64,000 bases of DNA from Candidatus Harrisonbacteria bacterium (GCA_016192685.1 JACPTS010000001.1:33412-97411); one strand, 5' to 3'. Counted from the first letter of the stretch, positions 5,901-19,412 are shown. The notes: a model not told the origin generated them from the sequence alone. Program-made: numbers and translations.

Positions 5901-6317
5901 TTAATTGCTTTTCGGCAATTTAGGCAAAAGGAAACTGACGATGCTTCTGCCGGTCTTAAGATTTTTTTTCATTTCTTCCTGGTCAGGATTTAAGATTAAA
6001 GCCGGCATTTCTAAATTGGTCGTAATGGGTTCTCTTTCGTTATTTAAGGGGATAACCTGAAATTTAAGGCCTTTCGGATTTAATTTTATAAGTTCCACCC
6101 GCATTAAAATAACATCAATACCCTCTTTATCCGCCATTCGCAACTTAGCAATGCTCATGGCATCAATAACGGAACAAATTAACTGGTAAAAAATATCGGC
6201 TAAAGCTTTCGGCTCCTCTACTCCAAGGCATTCAGCCACGTCTTTTGCGAACATTTCCACAAAATCATGCTGAAATTTCCCCGGGTCTTCGCGGTATCCG
6301 GCTTCAACAAATTTCAT
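5901..6317 (-). CDS. hypothetical protein (138 aa)
   Basis: clean ORF, no motif recognised. Confidence 0.35.
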   Translation of the reverse strand: MKFVEAGYREDPGKFQHDFVEMFAKDVAECLGVEEPKALADIFYQLICSVIDAMSIAKLRMADKEGIDVILMRVELIKLNPKGLKFQVIPLNNEREPITTNLEMPALILNPDQEEMKKNLKTGRSIVSFLLPKLPKSN

Positions 6318-6343
6318 TCCCTAATTTTGTTAAGGGACGCTAA

Positions 6344-7066
6344 TTAAAGAGTAACAAAATTATTGCTAAATTTCCAGTTTATTTTATACCAATTCAAGTG
6401 TTCATAGACGCTCGCCCAATATAAACCAAAAAAGAAGGCGAATAGCAGCTCTTCCAGCGGTATTCCAAAAATTAGTTTCCCCGAAATATTAGAAAAATTC
6501 CAAACCGCTTCAACATATCCCGGATACAATAGAATTAAAATCTGAAAATAAATAAAATAGATGCCGAGAAAAATCAAGCCGCTGGCCGCCATCTTTCCTT
6601 TTAAATCCGGCCGGCAATACCAAGCCGCGAAAAAACCGAATATCAATGAAAAAATTGCGCTATAAATCGGATTCATTACATTAGCAAAAATCAAAAATAC
6701 AAAAAGAAATGGCGGTAAAACTACTGCCAGCCAATGAAACCGGTGTTGTTTTCCATTCATTTCTTCAACGCTCATTTTTTCATGCCGCAATGGGAAAATC
6801 AATTCGTAAATTGCGGTCGCAATTCCGCCGATGGCAAAAGAAAAAATAAAGCTCTCCAAATCAAATCCGGTTCTTTGCGCCAAATCAAACAAGGTCGGCG
6901 GATTCCAATATTCCGGAACAAAAAGCGGTTCGGTTAAACCAAGCAAAGAAGTCCAAAAACTCATTTTCAGCATTTCTGACCGGCTCTCTTTTTCTTTGGT
7001 CAAAAAATAAACGATTACCCAGACCGCTAAAAGAATTAAACTCCAAAAAAACCAAGCATAATGCAT
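6344..7066 (-). CDS. hypothetical polytopic membrane protein (240 aa)
   Basis: at least 6 hydrophobic helices. Confidence 0.4.
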   Translation of the reverse strand: MHYAWFFWSLILLAVWVIVYFLTKEKESRSEMLKMSFWTSLLGLTEPLFVPEYWNPPTLFDLAQRTGFDLESFIFSFAIGGIATAIYELIFPLRHEKMSVEEMNGKQHRFHWLAVVLPPFLFVFLIFANVMNPIYSAIFSLIFGFFAAWYCRPDLKGKMAASGLIFLGIYFIYFQILILLYPGYVEAVWNFSNISGKLIFGIPLEELLFAFFFGLYWASVYEHLNWYKINWKFSNNFVTL

Positions 7067-7081
7067 ATTTAATTTCTCAAA

Positions 7082-7858
7082 TCACTTTATTGCCTCTAAA
7101 AACAAAAACAAAGGAATTTCTTTGCGGACGCGATCCTCCGCTTTGGCGCGCGGTCCAGATTCGCTTTTTTTATGGGAACTCCATTCTTCCAGGCGGCTCA
7201 CACAAAACCCGGATTTTTCCAGCGCCTTGAAATAAAACTGAAGCGGCCGATGAAAAGAAATCGTGTATTCGCTCCGCCGACCGCGAATTTGAGCCGAAGG
7301 ATGCATTTCAATTTTTGACCGCGATTCGGAAAGATAGCTGTCAATCCTCCGATACTGGATTTTATTTTTGGCATCCCATTCCCAACCGGAATATTTGGGG
7401 ACCCGAAAAGCCGGGTGGTTTAACACTAAAAATAATTTTCCTTCCGGCTTTAAAACCCGGGCGCATTCCTCAAAAACCCCATTAGCATTCTCTATATTTT
7501 GAATTGTCAGAATTAACACCGCCTTATCCAAGCTTTGGTTTTTTAACATTTTTAAATCATCCGCCGAAGCGGCAAAATAAAGAACCTGGCCCGGCGGATA
7601 GCCGCGGGTATGGCTTTTGGCAGCTTCAACCAGCTCTTTAGAAATATCCACGCCGATTACCTTAGCTCCTTTTTTCAAAAATTCGGCGGCAAAAAATCCC
7701 GGCCCGCAGCCCAAATCCAAAATCACCTCGCCTTTTTTAATGTTTAACAGCCGGAGCAAATTCGGTAAAATCACTTCTTTTTGATAAGTCCTTTCTCCGC
7801 TTAATAAATTTTGGTACCATCCGGCCACTCCTCCCCAGGAGGTTTTTAACTTTTTCAT
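7082..7858 (-). CDS. class I SAM-dependent methyltransferase
   Basis: motif I VILDLGCGPGFFA; motif II-like LKPEGKLFL. Confidence 0.8.
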   Translation of the reverse strand: MKKLKTSWGGVAGWYQNLLSGERTYQKEVILPNLLRLLNIKKGEVILDLGCGPGFFAAEFLKKGAKVIGVDISKELVEAAKSHTRGYPPGQVLYFAASADDLKMLKNQSLDKAVLILTIQNIENANGVFEECARVLKPEGKLFLVLNHPAFRVPKYSGWEWDAKNKIQYRRIDSYLSESRSKIEMHPSAQIRGRRSEYTISFHRPLQFYFKALEKSGFCVSRLEEWSSHKKSESGPRAKAEDRVRKEIPLFLFLEAIK

Positions 7859-7908
7859 AATTTATGCATCCTTTTCATCTCTAACAGTCTTTGCTATTAT
7901 AATATCAT

Positions 7909-7980
7909 TCCGGGATAGCTCAGCGGTAGAGCGGCGCGCTGTTAACGCGACGGTCGCAGGTTCGATCCCTGCTCCCGGAG
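7909..7980 (+). tRNA. tRNA-Asn (anticodon GUU)
   Basis: cloverleaf folded by hand: acceptor TCCGGGA/TCCCGGA, D-stem GCTC/GAGC, anticodon loop CTGTTAA, T-stem GCAGG/CCTGC with TTCGATC loop, discriminator G; CCA not encoded. Confidence 0.8.
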
Positions 7981-9603
7981 CAAAGGGCGTGATTTGGGGT
8001 AGAAATCCCCGAATCGTGCCTTCACTGGGGGCTTTTCCGAGGTTCGAATATTATTTCGAGGTTCGGAGAGCTCCAACGCATGGTTGAAAGGTTCCATGAG
8101 CAATGCACCGCTAAATATGGCGGTGTTTTGCTTTGGTTCGAATTTTTTCCATGCGGGGGTAAACTTTGCGAGTATTTCAAAGGCTTTGCTGTAACCGACG
8201 GTCAGTTCACCGTCTTTTATGGTGAGCGTTGAAAACATCAGGTTCATTAAGAGTCGTTTCTCGTCTATCGTCCGTTTCGGGTTTGAGTAAATCTCTTTGG
8301 CGCGATGCGCGAGATCAATAATACTTGCCCCTAGCTCATAGTATTTGTTACCCGCATTGTCTAGCTTCTTGAGTTCCGAAAGCACTTCCTCTTTTTCTTT
8401 GGTGTATTGATCATATTTCGTTTGATAAAATTCTGGCGTGATTTTGCCGTCAATCTTATCGTCATAAATTGCTTCAAGCCGTTTCTGCACGATCTGATAG
8501 CGGCTATTGAGGTTACTCCTAACGCCTGAACTGTAGGAAATCTCGTCAGCGTGGCTATCATTCAAGGCTTTCTTGATCCACTCAATGAGCCGTTCGTTTT
8601 TAAGGTTTATCTTCTCGAAGTACGGCATCAGGTTTTCCTCTACCTTTTCTTGGCGTATAAATTTGCGCTGGGTGCAATTGCGGTACTTATTGCAATGGCC
8701 GTACCAATGTCCTTTTTGAATTTCCCATGTAACCGATCCGCCACACTCCGAACACTTGATAAGTGCTTTGAAAAGCGGCGTGTGTTTGCGATAACGCGGT
8801 GCGCCATTTCTTTTAATTTTTACCTGTACCGCATTGAATAAGTCCTCGTTGATAAGCGGTTCATGTGCGCCTGCGTGAATTGCGCCGTTGTAGCGAATCT
8901 TGCCGATATAAAAAGGGTCTGTTAGGAGTTCGGCAACGCGGGATTTATAGACCTTGCCGCCACTCGAGCTTTTCAAACCCGCGTCATACAAAACATTCAC
9001 GATGGTCTTGGTTGAGTAATTGCCAGTTGCGTACATCTCAAACATTTTCTTTACGATATGCGCTTTCTCCTCATCGATGACATGAGTCTTGCGCCCTTTT
9101 TCTCCAATGCTCTTGTAGCCAAGCGGCGGTTTTGTCGGCAGCCATCCTTGCCGTAGTTTCTCGCCGAGCCCCTTTTTCACTTCCTCCGAAAGATTATCAA
9201 TATAGTTTTTTGCAAAAAGAATACGAATGCCCCAGTTTAGCTTTTCTTGCGATTTTGAGTTTTTGTGGAGTATCAACGAATCCTTCACGAGGTGTACTTG
9301 TCGTTCCTCATCTTCTTCGAGCCATTCATCAATCGAGACGGCGTCTTTGAAGTTACGGGTGAGACGATCCACTTTCTCGCAGATGATGACTTTGATTCCT
9401 TGCTTAGTTACATACTCCATCATCTGCCCGAAAACCTCTCGTTGTTTCTTGCCGCTTGCAGATTCAGAGATTGAAAAAACCTTGCCGATCTGGAATGTTT
9501 TCCTTTCGGCATATTCTTTGAGGAACTTCTCTTGAGCAGGCAGAGAATAGCCTGTTTCCTCTTGGTCTTTTGATGATACTCTTGCGTAAATTACGGCTTT
9601 CAT
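7942..9603 (-). CDS. large serine recombinase (integrase)
   Basis: N-terminal resolvase domain with catalytic Ser (IYARVSS), recombinase domain, zinc ribbon (CSECGG...CNKYRNC), coiled-coil; 3' end overlaps the tRNA-Asn 3' half. Confidence 0.85.
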   Translation of the reverse strand: MKAVIYARVSSKDQEETGYSLPAQEKFLKEYAERKTFQIGKVFSISESASGKKQREVFGQMMEYVTKQGIKVIICEKVDRLTRNFKDAVSIDEWLEEDEERQVHLVKDSLILHKNSKSQEKLNWGIRILFAKNYIDNLSEEVKKGLGEKLRQGWLPTKPPLGYKSIGEKGRKTHVIDEEKAHIVKKMFEMYATGNYSTKTIVNVLYDAGLKSSSGGKVYKSRVAELLTDPFYIGKIRYNGAIHAGAHEPLINEDLFNAVQVKIKRNGAPRYRKHTPLFKALIKCSECGGSVTWEIQKGHWYGHCNKYRNCTQRKFIRQEKVEENLMPYFEKINLKNERLIEWIKKALNDSHADEISYSSGVRSNLNSRYQIVQKRLEAIYDDKIDGKITPEFYQTKYDQYTKEKEEVLSELKKLDNAGNKYYELGASIIDLAHRAKEIYSNPKRTIDEKRLLMNLMFSTLTIKDGELTVGYSKAFEILAKFTPAWKKFEPKQNTAIFSGALLMEPFNHALELSEPRNNIRTSEKPPVKARFGDFYPKSRPLLREQGSNLRPSR

Positions 9604-9635
9604 TGTGGTTAGTCTGATTATAAATGGTTAACGTT

Positions 9636-9971
9636 TTATATCCAGAAATTTGGGGGAAGCCCCGCCTTGTCTGGGTATTCAAGGATTAGTTGCTTAACTT
9701 TGCGCTTTAATCCCTCAATGTCGTCCAAGACTTCGACGAGACGCCGAAACCAAGCATCGAATTCTGGTTTCTTGTCGATTTTGGCCTTGCTATCAGCGGC
9801 TATCAGATCGCAGGTGCGCCAGAGGAGTTTTGTGGTGTACGCCCTGCTTAAATGATGATCTTTTCTATCGAGTTCTTGCCACAATGCTCGTGCACTAATA
9901 TCAGGACGCTCTTTGAGTATTGTCCTTATTAGTTCTATGTGCAGGTTTTGTTTTTCTTTTGAGTATTTCAT
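9636..9971 (-). CDS. hypothetical protein (111 aa), possible small DNA-binding/directionality factor
   Basis: sits directly upstream of the integrase; basic, helical; no motif recognised. Confidence 0.3.
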   Translation of the reverse strand: MKYSKEKQNLHIELIRTILKERPDISARALWQELDRKDHHLSRAYTTKLLWRTCDLIAADSKAKIDKKPEFDAWFRRLVEVLDDIEGLKRKVKQLILEYPDKAGLPPNFWI

Positions 9972-10192
9972 GGATCGTTATTATTGATTTCACCCTGCTC
10001 CATTCCGCTCTAAGGGAGTTTATATGGTTCGTGATGGATTATTATTTTTGAATCGTTGTGCTGTTTTGCACGGTTTAGGACGGGGGGTGTTGTCGACGAT
10101 GGTTCGTTATGGGTTTTTTTTACAGTTCTTTAATTGTCTTTAAATTTCTTTAGGTTTCTTTACTGCGCGGAGTGTTCAGTCAGTTGAACACC

Positions 10193-10645
10193 TTACTTCG
10201 GAAACCGCTTATCGTAAGCCAATTTTCGCATCTGCCTTTCTAACTCTGTCGGGTCTCGCTGTTTAATTATCTGAACATCTTGTTCAGTCGGCTGAACGCC
10301 CTGTTCAATACGCTGAAGTAGTTGTTCAGCTATGTGAACACGCTCTTGATATATCCACAGATTCTTAACCCTGATTCGCTTCTCTGGCGTCCTCTCAAGA
10401 AGTCCTTTCCGAATCAGGCCACTCGTTCCCATGCTTATTTTCCCGATCGACCAACTTGCTAAATAAAGCCTTTGGATTTCTCGCAGCGATTCTTTTACTG
10501 TGGCAAAACCACTATGTCGTTTATCCCAGTCGGCGAGGCGACGATAAAGCAGCCAAAGTCGAAACTCGGTATCGTTGAGTTGCTTCTCAAGCTCGATTTC
10601 AATTCTGAACAGTTTTATGCAGCCTTTCTTTTTCATGATCGTCAT
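10193..10645 (-). CDS. hypothetical protein (150 aa), possible winged-helix DNA-binding protein
   Basis: contains iteron-like TGTTCAG DNA repeats; followed by a perfect 20-bp palindrome at 10171..10190. Confidence 0.3.
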   Translation of the reverse strand: MTIMKKKGCIKLFRIEIELEKQLNDTEFRLWLLYRRLADWDKRHSGFATVKESLREIQRLYLASWSIGKISMGTSGLIRKGLLERTPEKRIRVKNLWIYQERVHIAEQLLQRIEQGVQPTEQDVQIIKQRDPTELERQMRKLAYDKRFPK

Positions 10646-10812
10646 TGTAATTTTTGTCCTTGAAGTCGAGCCTCATCAGATGGTCAAAGAGTCCTACGAG
10701 TCGTTGGCCAACCTCAAACACTTCCTCGGGCGGCAAATTTTGCCCGAATTCGGCCCGAAGGATTGCAGATAGGTCATTTAGGTGCTCTTTGCTCAACATG
10801 GTGTGACACGGG

Positions 10813-11067
10813 TCAAACAGGCTCGTACAGGCGCGTCTTTAACGCCTTGAGTTGGTCAAAATAAGCGCGAACCTCGACCTTGAGCTCACGATTCCAGAAA
10901 GTCTCAAGGAGCTGGTCGAGCTCTCGAGACTTTCGGAATACAAAGTACGCCCGCCTGCGATCGGTTTTATCTATGGCTTCAATCGGCAAAAACAAAGAGA
11001 CCGCAGCAGCCAGCGCCAGATCTGCGGTTTGATAAAAATCTTTTGATTGCAGTATTTGCGTTGTCAT
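10813..11067 (-). CDS. hypothetical protein (84 aa)
   Basis: ORF only. Confidence 0.25.
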   Translation of the reverse strand: MTTQILQSKDFYQTADLALAAAVSLFLPIEAIDKTDRRRAYFVFRKSRELDQLLETFWNRELKVEVRAYFDQLKALKTRLYEPV

Positions 11068-11150
11068 AGTAATTTTTTTAAACGAAAAAGCAGACTTTTC
11101 TTTAAGTCTGCTCGAAAGGCCGTTGAGTCAATTACGACTCGTATTGTGTT

Positions 11151-11801
11151 TTAGAAATTGCGCTTGATTGTTCTATTTTCCCAAGTAAAAAGCGTATCTT
11201 TGGTGTTGATCACCTCTTTGATTCGGTTGTTTAGAGCATACATGGTGTCCTGAACTGTGCGTTTGTATTTCGCTTCCGCGATATCTTCCTGCCCGCCTGT
11301 CATCTGTCTGTAAACAGCTGACCAGTCAACTGGCTCATTTGGCCTGTATGAAAACATTGCGCGGCAGAAAAAGTGTTCATTCTTGAATGGCGGCAATGAA
11401 CACTTGCGCTTGCCAACGTGAATGGTTGCTTCCTCATCATCAAAATTTATTCTTTCGTCTTTGAGGGATACTGGCTGGTTAGTTTCTAGGGCATCAATTT
11501 TACTAAGATCAAATAAGCGCTGTCGTTCTGCGAGTAATTTTTTCTCTGTAATTCTATCAAGCTTTGGTATCACGTGTTGTGTGCCACCGTTTTGAAATTC
11601 AAAGGTGCGGATAGCGCCCTTCTTTTTCAGGGTTACGAGTAAATCTTCTATCATCTTAATACTGAGCCCATTTTGCGGTAATGATGGTATCTCAAGGATG
11701 TGAAGAGAAATTTCACCACCCCTTTTGGTTGTCTCATTCTTGATAAGAATTGTATCAATTATGTCTATGAGCCGTTGATATGGGCTCTCGGAGATATTCA
11801 T
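11151..11801 (-). CDS. hypothetical protein (216 aa)
   Basis: ORF only. Confidence 0.35.
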   Translation of the reverse strand: MNISESPYQRLIDIIDTILIKNETTKRGGEISLHILEIPSLPQNGLSIKMIEDLLVTLKKKGAIRTFEFQNGGTQHVIPKLDRITEKKLLAERQRLFDLSKIDALETNQPVSLKDERINFDDEEATIHVGKRKCSLPPFKNEHFFCRAMFSYRPNEPVDWSAVYRQMTGGQEDIAEAKYKRTVQDTMYALNNRIKEVINTKDTLFTWENRTIKRNF

Positions 11802-11824
11802 TGTAATTGTAATATCTAGCTTTA

Positions 11825-12148
11825 ATGAACCTCCCCGATTTGCCTCGTTTCTCTAAAAGTTGCACAAAATCCGATAAATGTAAACCAGCCGTGCGTTATT
11901 CACTTTTGCTATCCGGCGATATATTGTGTAAACTGATGTTAAGTCGCATTTTTATGTCGAAACTGAGTAAAAAAGCCAAAGCACTGCCAGAAATCCTAAC
12001 GCTCGCGCAGACGTGTGAAGTTTTAAATTGTCATCCGAATACGCTCCGTAACTGGGATCGCCGCGGAGTTTTAACAGCGATTCGCTTCGGGACACGCAAA
12101 GATCGACGTTACAAGAAGAGCGATGTTTTCAAGTTGATTGAATCTTGA
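11825..12148 (+). CDS. MerR/excisionase-family helix-turn-helix protein (start probably at internal MSKLSKK, about 11954)
   Basis: LTLAQTCEVLNCHPNTLRNWDRRGVLTAIRFGTRKDRRYKKSDV matches the HTH_17/MerR-type excisionase fold. Confidence 0.5.
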   Translation: MNLPDLPRFSKSCTKSDKCKPAVRYSLLLSGDILCKLMLSRIFMSKLSKKAKALPEILTLAQTCEVLNCHPNTLRNWDRRGVLTAIRFGTRKDRRYKKSDVFKLIES

Positions 12149-12163
12149 AATAAAAAGGTTAAA

Positions 12164-13984
12164 ATGACGATGAAAATTAAGGATATACCCAAAATAGAAC
12201 GCCCAAGAGAAAGATTTCTCCAAAAAGGGTCAGAGGCACTTTCAAAAAGTGATCTTTTGGCGATTATACTCGGAAGTGGGATAAAGGGTAAAAATGTTCA
12301 AAAACTCGCCCAGCAAATAATCAAGCAATTCAGCGATAAGTTTTTGGATGTTACTGTGGATGATCTAAAAAATATTTCTGGAATTGGAGAAGCAAAGGCA
12401 CTACAGATTGCAGCAGCTATTTCCTTAGTCAAAAGATTTTATGAAGAAGGCAAAGGAAATGAAGTTGTTATTAAAAATTCGAAAGACGCCCTCTCCCTCG
12501 TTTATGATTTGCGAGATAAAAAAAAGGAGCATCTGATTTGCCTATACTTGAATGCCAGAAATATTCTAATCAAAAAAGAAACAATTAGTATCGGGCTACT
12601 TGATAAAAGTCTTTTACATCCAAGAGAAATATTTTATCCAGCTGTTGAGTCAAATGCAGCAAGTATTATTTTGATTCATAATCATCCCTCAGGAGATCCC
12701 ACTCCAAGCGAAAAAGATATTGCGGTTGTGGAAAAGATAATCCGCGCAGGCGAAATAATGGGAATATCTGTAACAGATTTTCTCATTACTGCAGGTAGCG
12801 GAAATTATAGTTTTTACGAAACCCTAAAGGATAGAGGTACTGATTTTGAGTACGTGTCCGACGGATCACAGGGCGCATTGTTCGATTTATTAGAAACTAA
12901 AAAGGCTGATTATGGAGTAGATGCGGAAAGGATACAAGAAACCTATTTTTATATCCCGCCGATGAAAAAAAATCATCTCCAATTGCAGAATCGTAGATAT
13001 ATTGGGAGTAAACACAAACTGATTGAATGGATTTTTTCTATCATTAATAAAGAATGTAGAGGGGGAAACTCTTTTGCCGACGTTTTTGCTGGGACAGGAG
13101 TTGTATCAGCTGTCGCGGCACGGCATTTTGATGAAATAATACTGAACGATTTTTTATATTCTAATTATGCAATCTACCAAGCCTTTTTTAGTAAAGATGT
13201 GTGGGATAAAAAGAAAATTGATGATGTCATCAAAAACTATAACAACATTAATGGTGAAGATTTAGAAAATAATTACTTTTCTGAGCACTTTGGTGGAAAA
13301 TACTTCAGCCATAATTCCTCAAAGATAATCGGCTTTGTCAGAGAGAATATAGAGGAAAATAAGAATAATTTAACAAATAAAGAATATTACATTCTTATTT
13401 CTTCTTTGCTGTACTCAATCGATAAGATCGCTAATACCGTTGGTCATTATGATGCATATTTTAAGAAAGACCATATTGAAGATGGGTTTTTTATGAGGCC
13501 GATAGACCCCATTGAGGTAAAAAGGGTGACTATTTATAAAGAAGATACAAACTTATTGGCGAAGAAAATTAAAGCGGATGTGGTTTATATTGATCCGCCT
13601 TATAACTCAAGACAATACAGCCGTTTTTACCACGTGCTCGAGACTCTTACCAAATGGGACAAACCAAAGCTATACGGGACAGCACTAAAACCAGAAGAAG
13701 AAAATATGAGCGATTACTGTAAGGTACAAGCCAAAGACAGACTCGCCGAATTAATAAGAGACCTTAATGCTAAATATTTAGTAGTGTCTTACAATAATAC
13801 CTATGATTCAAAAAGCAATTCATCGAAAAATAAAATTACTCTAGAGGAGATAAAAAATATTTTAACAGCAAGGGGCAAGACAAAGATTTTTGAAAAAGAT
13901 TACCGACATTTTAATGCCGGAAATACTGATTTCAAAAATCATAAAGAATACCTTTTTGTAACCACCACTAATAATGCAAAATAA
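12164..13984 (+). CDS. fusion protein: RadC-like JAB domain (N-terminal) + D12-class N6-adenine DNA methyltransferase (C-terminal)
   Basis: N-terminal HhH (ISGIGEAKALQIAAA) and JAB motif ILIHNHPSGDPTPSEKD; C-terminal YIGSKHKL, FAGTGVVS (FxGxG) and VVYIDPPYN (DPPY). Confidence 0.75.
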   Translation: MTMKIKDIPKIERPRERFLQKGSEALSKSDLLAIILGSGIKGKNVQKLAQQIIKQFSDKFLDVTVDDLKNISGIGEAKALQIAAAISLVKRFYEEGKGNEVVIKNSKDALSLVYDLRDKKKEHLICLYLNARNILIKKETISIGLLDKSLLHPREIFYPAVESNAASIILIHNHPSGDPTPSEKDIAVVEKIIRAGEIMGISVTDFLITAGSGNYSFYETLKDRGTDFEYVSDGSQGALFDLLETKKADYGVDAERIQETYFYIPPMKKNHLQLQNRRYIGSKHKLIEWIFSIINKECRGGNSFADVFAGTGVVSAVAARHFDEIILNDFLYSNYAIYQAFFSKDVWDKKKIDDVIKNYNNINGEDLENNYFSEHFGGKYFSHNSSKIIGFVRENIEENKNNLTNKEYYILISSLLYSIDKIANTVGHYDAYFKKDHIEDGFFMRPIDPIEVKRVTIYKEDTNLLAKKIKADVVYIDPPYNSRQYSRFYHVLETLTKWDKPKLYGTALKPEEENMSDYCKVQAKDRLAELIRDLNAKYLVVSYNNTYDSKSNSSKNKITLEEIKNILTARGKTKIFEKDYRHFNAGNTDFKNHKEYLFVTTTNNAK

Positions 13985-14879
13985 AATTAAAAGATCCCCG
14001 TTGTTTTACGTCGGGGATAAATACAAGTTAATGAACCAATTGATTGGTTTATTTCCACGGGAAGTGAGCAATTTTTACGAACCTTTTGTCGGCGGCGGTA
14101 CGGTCTTTTTGAATGTTCAAGCGAACAAATACTATCTGAATGACAATGATAAAAATCTTATTGATATACAGAGATTTTTGATTGGTAGTTCAAGTAACCC
14201 AACCTCATTTTTTAAGAATGTTGAAAAGATAGTAAAAAGATATCATCTATCACGATCTTACAAGGAAGACGTAATCCCTTCTTCGTTAAAAAAGGAGTGG
14301 AAGAAAACCTACTTTGCCAGATTTAATAAAAGGGGTTATGAGAAATTAAGGGCTTGTGTAAATAAAAATATAAAGAATGAACCTTTGATTCTGTATATTT
14401 TGCTGATATACGGATTTAATAGAATGTTAAGATTTAATGGTGGTGGCAAGTTTAATCTGCCGGTTGGTAATGTTGATTTTAACAAAAATGTTGTTAACGC
14501 CTTAAACGGATATTTTGACTTTGTCCAAAATAAAAAAATAATCTTAAGCTCAAAAGATTTTAGAATCTATTTCGTTGGCAGGAAGTATGCAAAAAATGAT
14601 TTTGTCTATCTTGACCCCCCTTATTTAATAACGGCGAGCGAATATAATAAGCGTTGGGACGAAAAAGCTGATGCTGACTTACTGAAAATTATTGATGACC
14701 TGAACGAAAAAGGTGTTAAATTTGCCTTATCAAATGTTACTTATTACAACGGCAATAAAAATAACTTGCTGATCGATTGGATGAAAAAGTATAAGACTCA
14801 TAAGATTGAAAGTAATTATATTAATTACCATGATAACGGCAAAAAGCAGATCAGAGAAGTACTGATCACTAATTATTAA
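13974..14879 (+). CDS. Dam-like (D12 class) N6-adenine DNA methyltransferase
   Basis: YVGDKYKL, EPFVGGGTVFLN (motif I), VYLDPPYL (motif IV); 301 aa. Confidence 0.8.
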   Translation: MQNKIKRSPLFYVGDKYKLMNQLIGLFPREVSNFYEPFVGGGTVFLNVQANKYYLNDNDKNLIDIQRFLIGSSSNPTSFFKNVEKIVKRYHLSRSYKEDVIPSSLKKEWKKTYFARFNKRGYEKLRACVNKNIKNEPLILYILLIYGFNRMLRFNGGGKFNLPVGNVDFNKNVVNALNGYFDFVQNKKIILSSKDFRIYFVGRKYAKNDFVYLDPPYLITASEYNKRWDEKADADLLKIIDDLNEKGVKFALSNVTYYNGNKNNLLIDWMKKYKTHKIESNYINYHDNGKKQIREVLITNY

Positions 14880-14883
14880 GATT

Positions 14884-16410
14884 ATGAAAAAACGCGAATC
14901 AGAATATAAACCATTGTTGTTTACCACAACACTTAGAAATCCAGAACGATTAAAATGGTTTTTAGGTGTGCTTAAAGATTATGACGGACAAGTTCTCAAC
15001 GATACATTGGCTGAAGAAATTGCTGGTGAAATTATTCGAGTAGGCCTTTATAAACCGATCAAAATTAGTTCGACTGTTAAGAAGAAAATAGAAACCAAAG
15101 AGCCTCTGTCTGACAGGGAAGTCCGAATAGTGCTTGCTAATAATCCCCAAAACCATAAAGAAGCCGGTTTTAGTAAGGGCTGGGCTTCTAGATTTGATAC
15201 ATGGTTCAAAATAGCTAAAGAGCTTGGATTCGTTTATTACCAAAATGGCAAAAAAATCAGATTCTCTGAAATAGGGCTCAGGTTGGTTGATAATGAGCAC
15301 CCTGAATTTGAACAGCAGGCCTTTCTCAACGCATTCGTAAAATATCAGAGCAATAGCCCTTTCCGGAGAGTATTAAATGAAAATGCCCCTTTGATTTTAT
15401 TGTTAGGTGTAATTAAGAGAATAAATGCCGATAAGAGGTTTAACGGAACCGGAATTTCAAAGTTAGAATTGCCCTTAGTAATTTTCTGGAAAGATAACAA
15501 CGCAGAAAAGCTATATCAACTTATAAAGAAAATAAGAAAAGAGTACGGCTATAATCCGAGCTGGGAAGTTATCGTAGATATTTGCGTGAATCAAATAATG
15601 GGCGGCGAGTTCAAAAAATTTAACCACAAGTCCATAATGGTGGACTATCCGGATGAATTTATTAGAAAAATGCGATTGACCGGCTTGATCTCTTTAAGAG
15701 GAGCTGGTCGATTTGTTGATATAAATAAAAATGAACAAGCTAAGGTTGATTATGCTTTAGCGAATTATTCTCAATACAAAAAATACGCTTCAGAGGAAGA
15801 ATATTTTGAATACATGTCAATGGTGGATGAGAATCTTCTCTCGTTCGTTGCCAAACCAGTCAGCATTGGAGAACGCGATAAATTCTTGACTAAATGGATA
15901 AGCATTTATTCTTGGCAAAAAATTACTGACGAACTGCTTATTTTAGCTAAAGACAAACTGACAAAAGATGATATTTTGAAGTATTTATCAAGTCCAGTAA
16001 GGTTAGAGTTTCTTGTTGCTTTGGCGGTAAAATCTAAATTCCCCGATGTAAAGGTTATTCCTAACTATCCTTATGACGACGAGGGTTTACCGACGTCAAC
16101 GGCTGGCGGTATCGGTGATAAGGGAGATATTGAATGTTATGAGAGTGTTAATGGAGTACTGATTGAAGTGACTATGTCAGAGGGGAGAATACAAACAGTT
16201 ATGGAGATCTGGCCAATCGCTAGGCATTTAGAGGAGTTCAGTAAAAAAGTTGAACATTCGATGTGTTATTTCGTTGCCCCAAGTATTTTTAGAGATTCTG
16301 TACGGCAGATCGAATTTGTAAAAGAGAAAGACAATCTTTCTATTTTACCCAAGACCATCAAAGACTTTTTGAATCATTTAGAAAGTAGCAAGTCTCTATA
16401 CCCAGCATAA
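14884..16410 (+). CDS. candidate restriction endonuclease partner of the two methyltransferases (508 aa; possibly type IIS, AlwI-like; family not verified)
   Basis: operon position immediately after two adenine MTases; size fits type IIS/nicking enzymes; no unambiguous catalytic motif identified by eye. Confidence 0.35.
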   Translation: MKKRESEYKPLLFTTTLRNPERLKWFLGVLKDYDGQVLNDTLAEEIAGEIIRVGLYKPIKISSTVKKKIETKEPLSDREVRIVLANNPQNHKEAGFSKGWASRFDTWFKIAKELGFVYYQNGKKIRFSEIGLRLVDNEHPEFEQQAFLNAFVKYQSNSPFRRVLNENAPLILLLGVIKRINADKRFNGTGISKLELPLVIFWKDNNAEKLYQLIKKIRKEYGYNPSWEVIVDICVNQIMGGEFKKFNHKSIMVDYPDEFIRKMRLTGLISLRGAGRFVDINKNEQAKVDYALANYSQYKKYASEEEYFEYMSMVDENLLSFVAKPVSIGERDKFLTKWISIYSWQKITDELLILAKDKLTKDDILKYLSSPVRLEFLVALAVKSKFPDVKVIPNYPYDDEGLPTSTAGGIGDKGDIECYESVNGVLIEVTMSEGRIQTVMEIWPIARHLEEFSKKVEHSMCYFVAPSIFRDSVRQIEFVKEKDNLSILPKTIKDFLNHLESSKSLYPA

Positions 16411-16415
16411 ATAAT

Positions 16416-17156
16416 ATGTCTACGCAAAGAGGAAAAATCGTAAGTGCCGTCTTACAGATTCTAAAAGATAAACCAGAGGGCATTAGGTACTCCGAATTAT
16501 TCAGAGCCGTAAAAAATACTCTCCCAGAAGCAAACGACAATACCGTTCACAGCACTATTTGGGATTTGGATAAAAAAGTTGCAGAGATAACTAAACCAGA
16601 AAGGGGAATTTTCATATTGAGGCAATATATCAAGGAGGGGGCTGAAATAAAATTACGAGAGGAAAAAATAAGTAAGGGCATAAGCGAGAGCGCTTTTTAT
16701 GCTTCATTTGCGGATTATTTGGTTAAAGACTTAGGAGAGTGTACCAAGGCCGTTCCGCTTGGGGGCAATAGGTTTGGCGATAGATGGGGAACTCCTGATG
16801 TTTTTGGTGTATATAAATTTTCTGAAACTGACCGAATACGACCGCAACCAGAAATCGTGAGCGCAGAGATTAAGACTGATACAAGTCAAATTATAACAGC
16901 ATTTGGGCAGGCATGTGCCTATAAACTTTTTAGCCACAAGGTCTATCTGGTTATCCCTGAAGATGCCGAACGAGATATAGAAAGGGTAGAATCGCTTTGT
17001 ATGCGTTTCGGTATAGGTTTGATTTTATTTGATAAAAATAATGCTGAAAATCCTAATTGGGCTATCCGTGCTCGCGCCAATAAAAGTGAGCCTGATTTCT
17101 TCTATGTAAATAAATACCTTGAACAGCTCGGAGATGACTTGAAAAATTTATTTTAG
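16416..17156 (+). CDS. Mrr-like nuclease: N-terminal winged helix + PD-(D/E)xK catalytic core
   Basis: N-terminal IVSAVLQILKD...GIRYSELF (Mrr_N-like); TPDVFGV ... VSAEIKTD fits a PD..ExK motif. Confidence 0.5.
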   Translation: MSTQRGKIVSAVLQILKDKPEGIRYSELFRAVKNTLPEANDNTVHSTIWDLDKKVAEITKPERGIFILRQYIKEGAEIKLREEKISKGISESAFYASFADYLVKDLGECTKAVPLGGNRFGDRWGTPDVFGVYKFSETDRIRPQPEIVSAEIKTDTSQIITAFGQACAYKLFSHKVYLVIPEDAERDIERVESLCMRFGIGLILFDKNNAENPNWAIRARANKSEPDFFYVNKYLEQLGDDLKNLF

Positions 17157-17158
17157 AA

Positions 17159-18058
17159 ATGAAAGACGTTAAAGATTTAATAAAACTCGACGACGTAAAA
17201 AAATTAAAGGTTATGAATATTTTTCAAAAAATCATTGAGGTATTAACGGAAATTTTCTTTCGAAAGGACACAGCTCCGCCAAGCGTACCAACGCAGCCGC
17301 ATCAAGTTATTTCGACACCGCCGTCCCCAGATCAATCGCCAGCTCCAGTTCCTCCCTCAGTCGAACCAACAGTGACAGAATCCGCAACGCCCCTAACTCA
17401 AAATCAGGAACAGCCAGTTATTCTTAAAAATGCGGGGTTCTCCATTACTGCTGAACAATTAAAACAAATAGTACCCACGTTGTCAGATAGTAAATGCAAG
17501 GAATACTTGCCACATTTGTTTCAAACAATGACAGAGTTTGAAATAAATACGCCCATTCGTTTAGCTGCATTTATTGCTCAAACCGCACATGAATCAGCCG
17601 GATATTCCGCATTTCTTGAAAATCTAAATTATTCTGCACAAGCCCTTCTCAATACATGGCCAAACCGCTTTACGCCAGAAAGTGCTGCGATTTATGCACG
17701 ACAACCAGAAAAAATCGCAAACCATGTTTATATTAATCGTTTGGGGAATGGAGATGAGGCGAGTGGTGATGGATGGCGATACCGAGGACGAGGAGTAATT
17801 CAGACCACTGGACGCATTAACTACAAAGCATGTGGAGCTGGCCTAGGACTTGATTTGATCACATCTCCAGAATTACTTGAGCAGCCCTTAAACGCTTTTC
17901 GTTCAGCTGGATTGTACTGGAAGAGTCGCAATTGTAATTCTTTTGCCGACAGCGATAATTTCACTGGGCTTACAAAGGCAATTAACGGTGGTCTAAACGG
18001 ATTAGATGATCGAAAAGCTTATTATGCACGTGCAAAATCTGTGCTGGGCATTGTATAG
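17159..18058 (+). CDS. glycoside hydrolase family 19 (phage endolysin/chitinase-like) with Pro-rich N-terminal linker
   Basis: FIAQTAHESAGYS core motif typical of GH19; Pro/Ser/Thr-rich linker PPSVPTQPHQVISTPPSPDQSPAPVPPSVEP. Confidence 0.65.
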   Translation: MKDVKDLIKLDDVKKLKVMNIFQKIIEVLTEIFFRKDTAPPSVPTQPHQVISTPPSPDQSPAPVPPSVEPTVTESATPLTQNQEQPVILKNAGFSITAEQLKQIVPTLSDSKCKEYLPHLFQTMTEFEINTPIRLAAFIAQTAHESAGYSAFLENLNYSAQALLNTWPNRFTPESAAIYARQPEKIANHVYINRLGNGDEASGDGWRYRGRGVIQTTGRINYKACGAGLGLDLITSPELLEQPLNAFRSAGLYWKSRNCNSFADSDNFTGLTKAINGGLNGLDDRKAYYARAKSVLGIV

Positions 18059-18068
18059 TTAAAAAACT

Positions 18069-18611
18069 ATGTTCAATAAAACTGATTTTGAAAACATAGT
18101 TTGGGACTTCCTGTTCACGTACAGGCAGTTTCTGCTCAACGGATATTTACATAAAAGAGTAAACCATGATGTGTATGAAGCAAATACTGCTACTTGGAAT
18201 ACCTTACTTCTCAGCTTAGAATCGGGCGCTTTACTTGGTCTGGCAAAATTACTCGAACGAAAAGACGATTTAGGAAGACCATTTAATGGTGGCTTAGGAA
18301 AGACATTCAATAATGAAGAATTTAATAACGAAGAATTAAATGGAATTTCCGAGAAGATAATAAATCTGAGACATGCCTATATAGCGCATGCTGATTTATC
18401 AAAGATGCGCGATATAAACTCTTTTCTTACCAAAAATCGCTTGACTGGCACCGATATTGTTAAAATGTTTGATGCCCTTAAAAGTAGATTGATACAATAC
18501 CAGAAAAGCTTGAAGCTCGATGTCGATGTGCAAAAATTATTTACGGAAAGTCAAAATAGCGCACTTCACGATCTGAATAGCTGGCTAAAATCTTTTAACG
18601 CAGAGTCATAG
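18069..18611 (+). CDS. hypothetical protein with Rx5H motif (LRHAYIAH), possible HEPN/Abi-like
   Basis: 180 aa, alpha-helical composition, a single R-x5-H motif; weak. Confidence 0.3.
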   Translation: MFNKTDFENIVWDFLFTYRQFLLNGYLHKRVNHDVYEANTATWNTLLLSLESGALLGLAKLLERKDDLGRPFNGGLGKTFNNEEFNNEELNGISEKIINLRHAYIAHADLSKMRDINSFLTKNRLTGTDIVKMFDALKSRLIQYQKSLKLDVDVQKLFTESQNSALHDLNSWLKSFNAES

Positions 18612-18832
18612 TAGCTATTAAGAGCGTGGGGCTAACAGTCCTTGCATCTGATGCAGTGAAGTCTCGGGAAACTCAAATAATTCTTCCCAGCGGATGGTTC
18701 GAAACTCGTTGAAACGTGGGAGCTCAGAGATTATTATTCTTTTAACGAGACAGCCTGTCTACCGGCAGGCAGGTCTCAAGTTTCCTGCCCCCCTTGGAGG
18801 GAATCCCCGCTCCCGGAGCAAAAACAAAACAA

Positions 18833-18857
18833 AAAACGGCTCACTGGGAGCCGCTGG
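18833..18857 (-). terminator. intrinsic terminator for gene 18860..19045
   Basis: minus-strand hairpin cggctc-ccagt-gagccg followed by TTTTTT. Confidence 0.7.
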
Positions 18858-18859
18858 AT

Positions 18860-19045
18860 TTAAACAACATCGGGACCAAGATCAATTACGATGCCGCAAT
18901 GCGGACATTTAAAAAATCTTCCCTCTCCGTCCTCATCTAATGGATAGGCATCCACATGGGTCCAAACTTCATCTTCCTTTCTTTCTCCCGGAAAAGGCCG
19001 ATCTTTCGTGCATTCTTTTCTTATAATAGACTTACCTTTATCCAT
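18860..19045 (-). CDS. hypothetical small protein (61 aa)
   Basis: ORF followed by terminator. Confidence 0.3.
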   Translation of the reverse strand: MDKGKSIIRKECTKDRPFPGERKEDEVWTHVDAYPLDEDGEGRFFKCPHCGIVIDLGPDVV

Positions 19046-19265
19046 CTTTTTTCACCTTCTTTTTAGATCGCGGCGTAGAATATGATTCAACTCGGTCAAA
19101 CACATAAACCAAAAATTCTAAGGTTTCTGGAGCACGATCGCCAAAATTAACCGAGTCATACTTACAGGTTATCACGCAACCCATATCATCTATTTGAGCT
19201 CCACACTCTTTGCATACTAATATTTTCATCTCTTTTATCGGAGGCTTGTTCTTAGCTTCGGGCAT
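19038..19265 (-). CDS. hypothetical zinc-ribbon-like small protein (75 aa)
   Basis: CKECGAQIDDMGCVITCKY Cys cluster. Confidence 0.35.
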   Translation of the reverse strand: MPEAKNKPPIKEMKILVCKECGAQIDDMGCVITCKYDSVNFGDRAPETLEFLVYVFDRVESYSTPRSKKKVKKDG

Positions 19266-19369: not shown

Positions 19370-19388
19370 AGGGGTATAAGGAAAAGAA

Positions 19389-19412
19389 AAAACGGCTCAC
19401 TGAGAGCCGCTT
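19389..19412 (-). terminator. intrinsic terminator overlapping stop of 19397..19861 (near-identical to 18833..18857)
   Basis: hairpin ggctc-tcagt-gagcc + TTTTTT on minus strand. Confidence 0.7.

Follow-up and report, generated by a model that had tools for sequence, protein, structure and literature searches.

Restriction endonucleases (REases) of the AlwI family are accompanied by a 'DNA adenine methylase' and a Dam-type methyltransferase (MTase), fused or separate, one for each strand, and their known recognition sites include GGATC, GAGTC/GASTC and the SfaNI-like GCATC (PMC12898733, PMC9799307). RadC has been reported in fusions or contexts with helix-hairpin-helix (HhH) domains, ArdC, DnaG and DinG, in conjugative polyvalent proteins, and in RadC/ArdB modules; the polyvalent proteins hold up to 15 domains and are found in conjugative or phage elements with transfer genes (PMC5512222). 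The consensus of bacterial clamp-binding peptides is QL(S/D)LF, with variation tolerated (PMC9690074). Here we describe a locus within 64,000 nucleotides (nt) of DNA from Candidatus Harrisonbacteria bacterium (GCA_016192685.1 JACPTS010000001.1:33412-97411; this whole stretch is called the window, and positions are counted from its first letter), in which a RadC is fused to the lead MTase of what is very probably a mobile, four-gene, AlwI-family type IIS restriction-modification (R-M) cassette, consisting of a helix-turn-helix (HTH) regulator, the RadC::M1 fusion, a second MTase (M2) and the REase. With the same high confidence, the cassette is carried by a 10.9-kb serine-integrase element integrated at the tRNA-Asn gene of this metagenome-assembled genome, and its lead MTase is built from four modules: the RadC HhH, the RadC JAB domain, a Q-x-x-[L/F]-F peptide and a D12-class core. 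Taken by itself, the R-M system is unremarkable within the known AlwI family, and the new parts are the RadC tag and the junction motif.

The RadC::methyltransferase fusion and its cassette

Seven open reading frames (ORFs), all on the + strand, occupy positions 11825-18611, separated by 15, -11, 4, 5, 2 and 10 nt. The second, RadC::M1 (12164..13984, 606 amino acids (aa)), was assigned using Pfam, NCBIfam and PADLOC as the lead MTase, and begins with the RadC N-terminal domain UPF0758_N, including the HhH GIG motif (12176..12400, aa 5-79; Pfam 82 bits), followed by the RadC JAB metalloenzyme domain (12473..12820, aa 104-219; Pfam 124 bits; PDB 2qlc, E=4e-24). The first 219 residues match the full RadC equivalog (NCBIfam NF000642, 214.6 bits against a cutoff of 180), both RadC families (PF20582 and PF04002) are present with intact HPREIF, HNHPSG and PSEKD motifs, and the only solved relative of this N-terminal part is the RadC homologue 2qlc; in the RadC-fusion homologues P0138 and P0206, HHH/HHH_5 matches were also found. 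The M1 core is a D12-class N6-adenine MTase (12971..13984, aa 270-606; FADVFAGTG ... DPPY), matching Pfam MethyltransfD12 over aa 279-537 (PF02086, 125 bits, FAGTG/DPPY) and PADLOC MTase_II over aa 270-601 (433 bits). The original prediction, made from the sequence alone, had read this ORF as RadC (HhH plus JAB) joined in-frame to a D12 MTase, and the profile searches, which detected all three domains far above curated cutoffs, bear that out.

The same architecture, at ~603 aa and with an identical set of four Pfam domains, was found in at least 120 clusters (90% identity, independent assemblies) at 75-81% identity, and 7 genome loci encode RadC::M1 uninterrupted. JAB motifs were intact in every fusion examined, and pN, the nonsynonymous divergence, was 0.05-0.31 with saturated synonymous divergence (pS) in every segment (JAB pN 0.10-0.28). 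All segments of the fusion are under purifying selection, and the fusion is genuine and selected. The AlphaFold (AF2) model of the whole fusion was poor (mean predicted local distance difference test (pLDDT) score 61, predicted template modelling (pTM) score 0.47) and was not used for domain packing.

RadC::MTase fusions were searched for among 50%-identity representatives, followed by Pfam scans of the matches. Full RadC was found N-terminal to D12 MTases (P0121, P0123), to C5 cytosine MTases (P0132, P0138, P0142, P0213), and to an N4/N6 beta-class MTase (P0206). In a neighbour-joining tree, the fused RadCs formed their own clade, with D12 and C5 partners mixed, apart from the standalone RadCs. 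At a single locus downstream of lpdA in genomes of SUP05 and Bathymodiolus symbionts, one representative carries RadC::D12 with an AlwI-family REase and a beta-class MTase (L011), and two others carry RadC::C5 with an NgoFVII-type type IIP REase (L020, L021), the RadC thus being constant while the MTase and REase are exchanged. Fusion of RadC to the lead MTase of unrelated R-M systems is a general, widespread architecture. No description of a RadC fusion to an R-M methyltransferase was found in the searched literature, in keeping with the earlier remark that the architecture was not recognised from characterised systems; the rarity implied by that remark was not upheld, the architecture being abundant in metagenomes and merely unstudied. 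The suggestion that the JAB domain processes protein adducts gained no support, RadC being joined to MTases that form no covalent intermediate (D12, N4/N6) besides C5 enzymes.

Several fusion-bearing sequences showed further features. Two full RadC::D12 proteins from Omnitrophota (P0022, P0076) are annotated at NCBI merely as 'DNA repair protein RadC'. In a SUP05-like gammaproteobacterium (L010, 6050-16029), the 3' end of the gene for class I ribonucleotide reductase is duplicated (6050-9982 and 15628-16029), and between the two copies lies a cassette of RadC::D12, a 423-aa coiled-coil protein, an AlwI-like REase and a beta-class MTase; the 1310-aa reductase has an apparent intein-like insertion. 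The ORF that follows (16042-18690) starts with MPKIKDIPKID, identical to the first 11 residues of the RadC, and continues into an apparent large C5 plus N6 MTase as judged by motifs; from its sequence it looks like the scar of a cassette replacement by recombination within the 5' end of radC. In another locus (L022, 892-2739), a RadC::C5 MTase continues, without a change of frame, into the C-terminal portion of ribosomal protein S5, with L30, L15 and SecY coming next; the joint reflects either a chimeric assembly or a large deletion.

The second MTase, M2 (13974..14879), overlaps M1 by 11 nt and is a Dam-family D12 N6-adenine MTase (TIGR00571, 135 bits, above cutoff; PF02086, 97 bits; FVGGG/DPPY), whose nearest solved relative is phage T4 Dam (1yfj, 139 bits), as expected for what had been called a second Dam-like MTase. 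The 508-aa candidate endonuclease (14884..16410) proved to be an AlwI-family type IIS REase by both Pfam (RE_AlwI, PF09491, 138 bits against a cutoff of 23) and PADLOC (REase_II, 443 bits over the full length), and its C-terminus matches the catalytic small subunit of R.BspD6I. M1 and M2 map, respectively, to the N- and C-terminal halves of the two-domain MTase profiles PDLC03287 and PDLC03292 in PADLOC, so that two D12 enzymes fitting the halves of fused profiles stand beside an AlwI-type REase. Because of the REase family, this correspondence to MTase halves and the published MTase pairing, the earlier proposal of a type IIS-like system with two adenine MTases, one large nuclease and an asymmetric site is supported. 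In such a system, the two D12 MTases would protect the two strands of the asymmetric site, and the AlwI-type nuclease would cut unmodified DNA.

Upstream of the fusion, a 64-aa HTH_17 (MerR/excisionase-type) DNA-binding protein (11954..12148; ATG at 11954, ORF open from 11825; Pfam 35 bits) also belongs to the cassette; this gene and the junction motif had been overlooked by the original prediction. It is probably the controller of cassette transcription. A promoter and terminator scan of the operon found promoter-like sites to be no more frequent than in shuffled sequence.

To follow the cassette elsewhere, the island proteins of the window were mapped onto 24 related genome loci. RadC::M1, M2 and the REase are kept en bloc in seven of these (L001-L007), with identities to the window of 75-89% for M1, 71-88% for M2, 73-87% for the REase and 61-73% for RadC, and the block is present in Saccharibacteria, Magasanikiibacteriota, Parcubacteria, Omnitrophota and Brocadiaceae. 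An HTH_17 gene (58 bits) lies directly 5' of RadC::M1 in L003 and L004, and in L012 an HTH 75-77% identical to that of the window is fused in-frame to M1, in what looks like a RadC deletion. Unfused M1-M2-REase cassettes occur in L015, L016 and L019. As these unfused and HTH-fused cassettes show, RadC is dispensable for the cassette. No REase was detected in L013 or L014. In L009, a JAB-only RadC gene (9170-9631, - strand; 154 aa, Pfam 146 bits) lies divergently, 5' of M1 (9917 onward, + strand), an arrangement that, with M1 still bearing QGALF, may have arisen from the fusion by fission or inversion.

The junction peptide and readings of the fusion

Between the JAB domain and the M1 core lies the peptide EYVSDGSQGALFDLLETK (12848..12901, aa 229-246, by translation), whose core, QGALF (12869-12883, aa 236-240), is a short linear motif, conserved, and a candidate for binding the beta clamp. 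A peptide following the JAB domain, with a Q-x-x-[L/I]-F core, is common to every one of the fusions. Qxx[LIMV]F was found at a fixed offset in 117/119 close homologues, with Q, L and F fixed and positions 2 and 3 variable (for example QGTLF, QRTLF, QLTLF, QLSLF); Q236 and F240 are invariant and L239 is conserved in at least 90%. The motif was absent from ~35 standalone RadC representatives, whose sequences end before the peptide. It was retained where RadC is missing: the RadC-less M1 of L009 starts with it, it stands at the extreme N-terminus of P0185 (MSAAQLALF) and of the RadC-less proteins of L014 and L015, and a LexA::M1 fusion (P0149) keeps it as QLPLF in the linker. It was also kept in HhH-only::motif::M1::M2 proteins that have no JAB domain (P0422-P0427), and in a RadC::M1::M2 triple fusion (P0418), fused M1::M2 relatives being found as well. 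Among 38 non-RadC M1 proteins with an N-terminal tail, the motif was present in 6, against 0.9 expected (0/5000 shuffles reached 6), and in those 6 proteins it was always 19-41 residues before the catalytic core.

For an independent test of the motif, a search was seeded with the RadC-less protein of L015. In this lineage, 25/28 proteins share the N-terminus ME[IV]Q[KR]x[FL]F, with an entropy of 0 at Q and at the final F and of at most 0.8 bit at [L/F], and of 2.2-3.4 bits over the next 17 positions. Because a conserved island is followed by 17 variable residues, this N-terminus was taken to be a short linear motif. QGALF fits a QL(S/D)LF-like pentapeptide that is conserved and placed in a terminal or flexible region, the evidence for flexibility being weak: the AF2 fusion model leaves the junction unstructured and has its lowest confidence there.

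Two related groups of proteins differ at the N-terminus. P0149 (558 aa) is a complete LexA (DNA-binding domain and S24 peptidase) fused to an M1-type D12 MTase, and would, from its domains, be an SOS-repressor::methylase architecture. Proteins P0431-P0447 (M1::M2 of ~690 aa) have other N-terminal tails with a conserved PIQQSFDFGFDF or EPQILLWE, which, by their composition, could be variant forms of the Q-initiated hydrophobic motif.

The best explanation of the whole, to which we assign a probability of roughly 45%, is an AlwI-family cassette whose RadC::M1 is recruited by the clamp. Its central step is tentative: Q-x-x-L-F may be a beta-sliding-clamp-binding motif which, together with the HhH, would recruit the lead methylase to clamps. 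The searched literature gave no account of clamp binding by either R-M methylases or RadC. Drawn by the peptide and by the HhH, which binds DNA non-specifically, the methylase would reach clamps on DNA that has just been replicated, repaired or acquired; it would then methylate sites promptly, ahead of the nuclease, and this would matter most while the element is becoming established in a naive host. The RadC JAB, catalytically intact, would be delivered alongside as a nucleic-acid-processing activity, and is regarded as accessory because relatives work with the peptide alone, or with HhH and peptide. The wider proposal, that R-M MTases of this family are physically coupled to the replisome by a clamp-binding peptide and that RadC is a clamp-delivered DNA-processing enzyme working with methylation, appears rather unlikely.

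Several points weigh against clamp recruitment. Q-x-x-[LF]-F is short, and might just as well serve to dock M2 or the REase, act as a degron or mark a site of processing. Hemimethylated sites are normally resistant to restriction, so the need for replication-coupled methylation is not obvious. With an AF2 fusion model as poor as this one (pLDDT 61), a 'disordered linker' is a weak description of the junction. An N-terminal tail is wholly missing from many M1 relatives, and HTH_3-fused forms have no motif, so the motif is not essential for methylation.

Of the other readings, the one that survives best, although unlikely, makes RadC an establishment or anti-restriction DNA-processing factor of the element, fused for early co-expression, with the peptide serving either for docking to M2 or the REase or as a degron setting MTase stability. 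RadC is tied to anti-restriction modules in mobile elements (RadC/ArdB, polyvalent proteins), the cassette sits on an integrative element and moves between phyla, and the identity of the motif was read from sequence. Yet RadC is joined in every case to the lead MTase of a complete R-M system, never to an orphan anti-restriction methylase, and the SUP05-type symbiont fusion is at chromosomal loci with no obvious element. As for docking, the motif persists where M1 and M2 are one polypeptide and M2 docking is not needed, and also where no REase was detected (L013, L014).

An improbable reading has RadC as a regulatory or signal-responsive N-terminal 'controller', comparable to LexA or to the autoregulating methylases fused to an HTH, whose metallopeptidase would cleave or release the MTase upon DNA damage or in the presence of single-stranded DNA. 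The same position is indeed held elsewhere by LexA (P0149), by an Xre HTH (P0183; ~45 HTH_3::M1::M2 clusters) and by HTH_17 (L012). However, RadC does not take the place of a regulator, since the window, L003 and L004 each have an HTH gene of their own alongside it; non-specific DNA binding by the HhH suits targeting better than operator recognition; and the LexA fusion retains Q-x-x-L-F as a separate element. Cleavage at the junction by the JAB domain was set aside, there being no Gly-Gly site at the junction and the RadC JAB being reported to have no ubiquitin-tail groove, which peptidase action needs (PMC5512222).

Still more improbable is a neutral fusion, in which an adjoining radC was accidentally read through and hitch-hiked with a successful cassette. 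The dispensability of RadC, seen in the unfused cassettes (L015, L016, L019) and in the apparent deletion in L012, would agree with this, but fusions with three unrelated MTase classes, a dedicated RadC clade, intact catalytic motifs under purifying selection across phyla, and a RadC that stays constant while MTase and REase are swapped at one locus do not. The chance that misassembly or a frameshift has falsely joined two genes into the 606-aa ORF is negligible, and this was rejected given the unbroken ORF in at least 120 independent clusters and 7 genome loci.

The integrative element, its cargo and the recognition site

The element is bounded on the left by a tRNA-Asn (GTT) gene (7909..7981, + strand; ARAGORN), whose 3' end (7965-7984) is the left attachment repeat, and on the right by a displaced copy of this tRNA 3' end (18803-18822, + strand); the two repeats, of 20 nt with a 19/20 match, enclose ~10.86 kb (7965-18822). 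At the left border, a large serine recombinase gene (7942..9603, - strand) encodes an integrase with three domains (Pfam Resolvase, Recombinase and Zn_ribbon_recom; PHROG integrase, 276 bits), which, together with the attachment repeats at tRNA-Asn, identifies a large-serine-recombinase integrative element. Four small left-arm ORFs on the - strand (9636-9971, 10193-10645, 10813-11067, 11151-11801) had no family match in Pfam, NCBIfam, PADLOC or PHROG. Integrase homologues (47-50% identity) were found at the equivalent position in L003 and L004, in the latter likewise adjoining tRNA-Asn, and an 84-aa left-arm ORF has homologues in both. In the sister element of L004, the cargo 3' of the REase differs from that of the window; its right attachment repeat was searched for and none was found. 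GC content dips at 12-16 kb of the window, and the density of GATC is 3.41 per kb inside the element and 1.05 per kb outside. The element was called mobile because of the integrase, the tRNA-Asn, the 19/20 repeat, the low GC, the GATC density and the sister elements in L003 and L004. ORF, Pfam and PHROG scans found no conjugation or virion genes among the proteins of the 10.9-kb element. A chromosomal defence island was rejected as the setting, against the defence-island signature proposed earlier, and an integrated mobile element is favoured instead by the integrase, the tRNA-Asn attachment repeats and the cargo that varies in the sister element.

Two direct repeats of 41 nt that are 83% identical (18815-18855 and 19371-19411) lie just past the right border of the element and flank two small Zn-ribbon-like ORFs (18860-19265, - strand). 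Each repeat holds the hairpin AACGGCTCACTG(G/A)GAGCCG, and the copy at 18815-18855 scores as terminator-like.

Three further genes lie 3' of the REase. The first (16416..17156) encodes a 246-aa protein, 100% identical to NCBI HYY86_00275, for which no match to Mrr_cat or any other nuclease family was found in Pfam, NCBIfam or PADLOC; in its AlphaFold model (pLDDT 81.7), a winged helix precedes a PD-(D/E)xK nuclease fold that has a putative catalytic D...ExK. The earlier label 'Mrr-like' is thus tenable for fold and architecture and not at the level of sequence. The family of this protein has >3000 members and no Pfam model; one member (L027) lies between a 367-aa protein and a 985-aa ResIII/SWI2_SNF2 helicase, 3' of a 746-aa N6_N4 MTase, and another (L025) stands alone beside LexA. 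The second gene (17159..18058) encodes a GH19 peptidoglycan hydrolase, endolysin-like and with a Pro-rich N-terminal region; the assignment as a GH19 lysin, already proposed, is solid, with Pfam (38.8 bits) above cutoff and a PHROG endolysin match of 295 bits. The third (18069..18611) encodes a probable AbiU2-type HEPN protein, with a HEPN_AbiU2 match (E=1e-5, 25.5 bits) just under the cutoff of 26.8 and a RHAYIAH motif that fits Rx4-6H. The 246-aa nuclease, the GH19 gene and the HEPN-like gene were found in 0/24 of the related loci. Because of this absence and of the other cargo in the sister element, they were regarded as element-specific cargo and not as parts of the system, contrary to the original prediction, which had counted the nuclease and the HEPN-like protein in one module and had the lysin complete a defence-island signature.

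The recognition site was approached through k-mer avoidance and through M2. GATC is under-represented in host DNA (observed/expected (O/E) ratio 0.46, z -13.8, over the 64-kb window), and because it is depleted throughout the host DNA, avoidance within the window is uninformative for the recognition site (O/E of 0.72 for GGATC, 0.85 for GAGTC and 0.99 for GCATC). Other depleted k-mers were CTCAG/CTGAG (O/E 0.49) and GCAGC/GCTGC (0.64). The depletion of GATC outside the element, set against its density inside, suggests long-term GATC-directed restriction pressure on the host and a recent arrival of the element. Compared with the recognition hairpin of T4 Dam, M2 conserves F111, M114, R116, N118 and P126 and has V in place of R130, a pattern that, from the presumed roles of these residues, hints at an xATC half-site, as a lead only.

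Comparison with known systems

RadC is nearly universal in bacteria, its name is disputed, and its function has been a matter of dispute for decades; the fusion clade is a strong guilt-by-association clue, and the RadC::MTase cassette offers a compact, clonable system for RadC function. The Q-x-x-L-F motif suggests that R-M modification may be coupled to replication via the sliding clamp, for which no report concerning bacterial R-M enzymes was found in the searched literature. If true, clamp coupling would be a bacterial counterpart of DNMT1-PCNA and would give RadC its first defined molecular context. The labelling of some of these proteins as no more than 'DNA repair protein RadC' masks active R-M systems of candidate-phyla-radiation and symbiont genomes, in which genetic tools are hampered by restriction barriers.

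With the AlwI-family type IIS systems (AlwI, GGATC; PleI/MlyI/BstNBI, GAGTC; SfaNI-like), the window shares the AlwI-family REase, the two D12 m6A MTases and the operon layout, and differs in the N-terminal RadC and Q-x-x-L-F of its lead MTase and in its setting on a serine-integrase element in a candidate-phyla-radiation bacterium. Its M1 and M2 resemble the two-domain type IIS MTases of the M.FokI/M.StsI type in fitting the halves of fused profiles of 646 and 722 aa, which we presume to represent FokI-type enzymes (our own assumption, not a result of the tool), whereas in the window the halves are separate, translationally overlapping genes. R-M methylases of the SsoII/EcoRII/MspI type are fused to an HTH and autoregulate; as in these, the MTase N-terminus here hosts an accessory DNA-binding module, and HTH_17::M1 of L012 and the HTH_3::M1::M2 proteins are of the same kind, but the window has RadC as the fused module and encodes its HTH in a gene apart. 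In eukaryotes, the maintenance methyltransferase DNMT1 is coupled to PCNA via a PIP box, and a similar Q-initiated hydrophobic, clamp-type peptide lies N-terminal to the MTase catalytic domain here, the likeness being a functional analogy without homology in which clamp binding is predicted. Polyvalent proteins differ from the window's fusion, which is RadC plus one MTase on an element with no conjugation genes and so falls outside that class. Known RadC fusions (HhH, ArdC, DnaG primase, DinG/RAD3 helicase; polyvalent proteins; RadC/ArdB morons) likewise join the RadC JAB and HhH to DNA-transaction enzymes in mobile or conflict settings, whereas here RadC is paired with the modification enzyme of an R-M system that is complete, and the fused RadCs form a dedicated clade with a junction motif.

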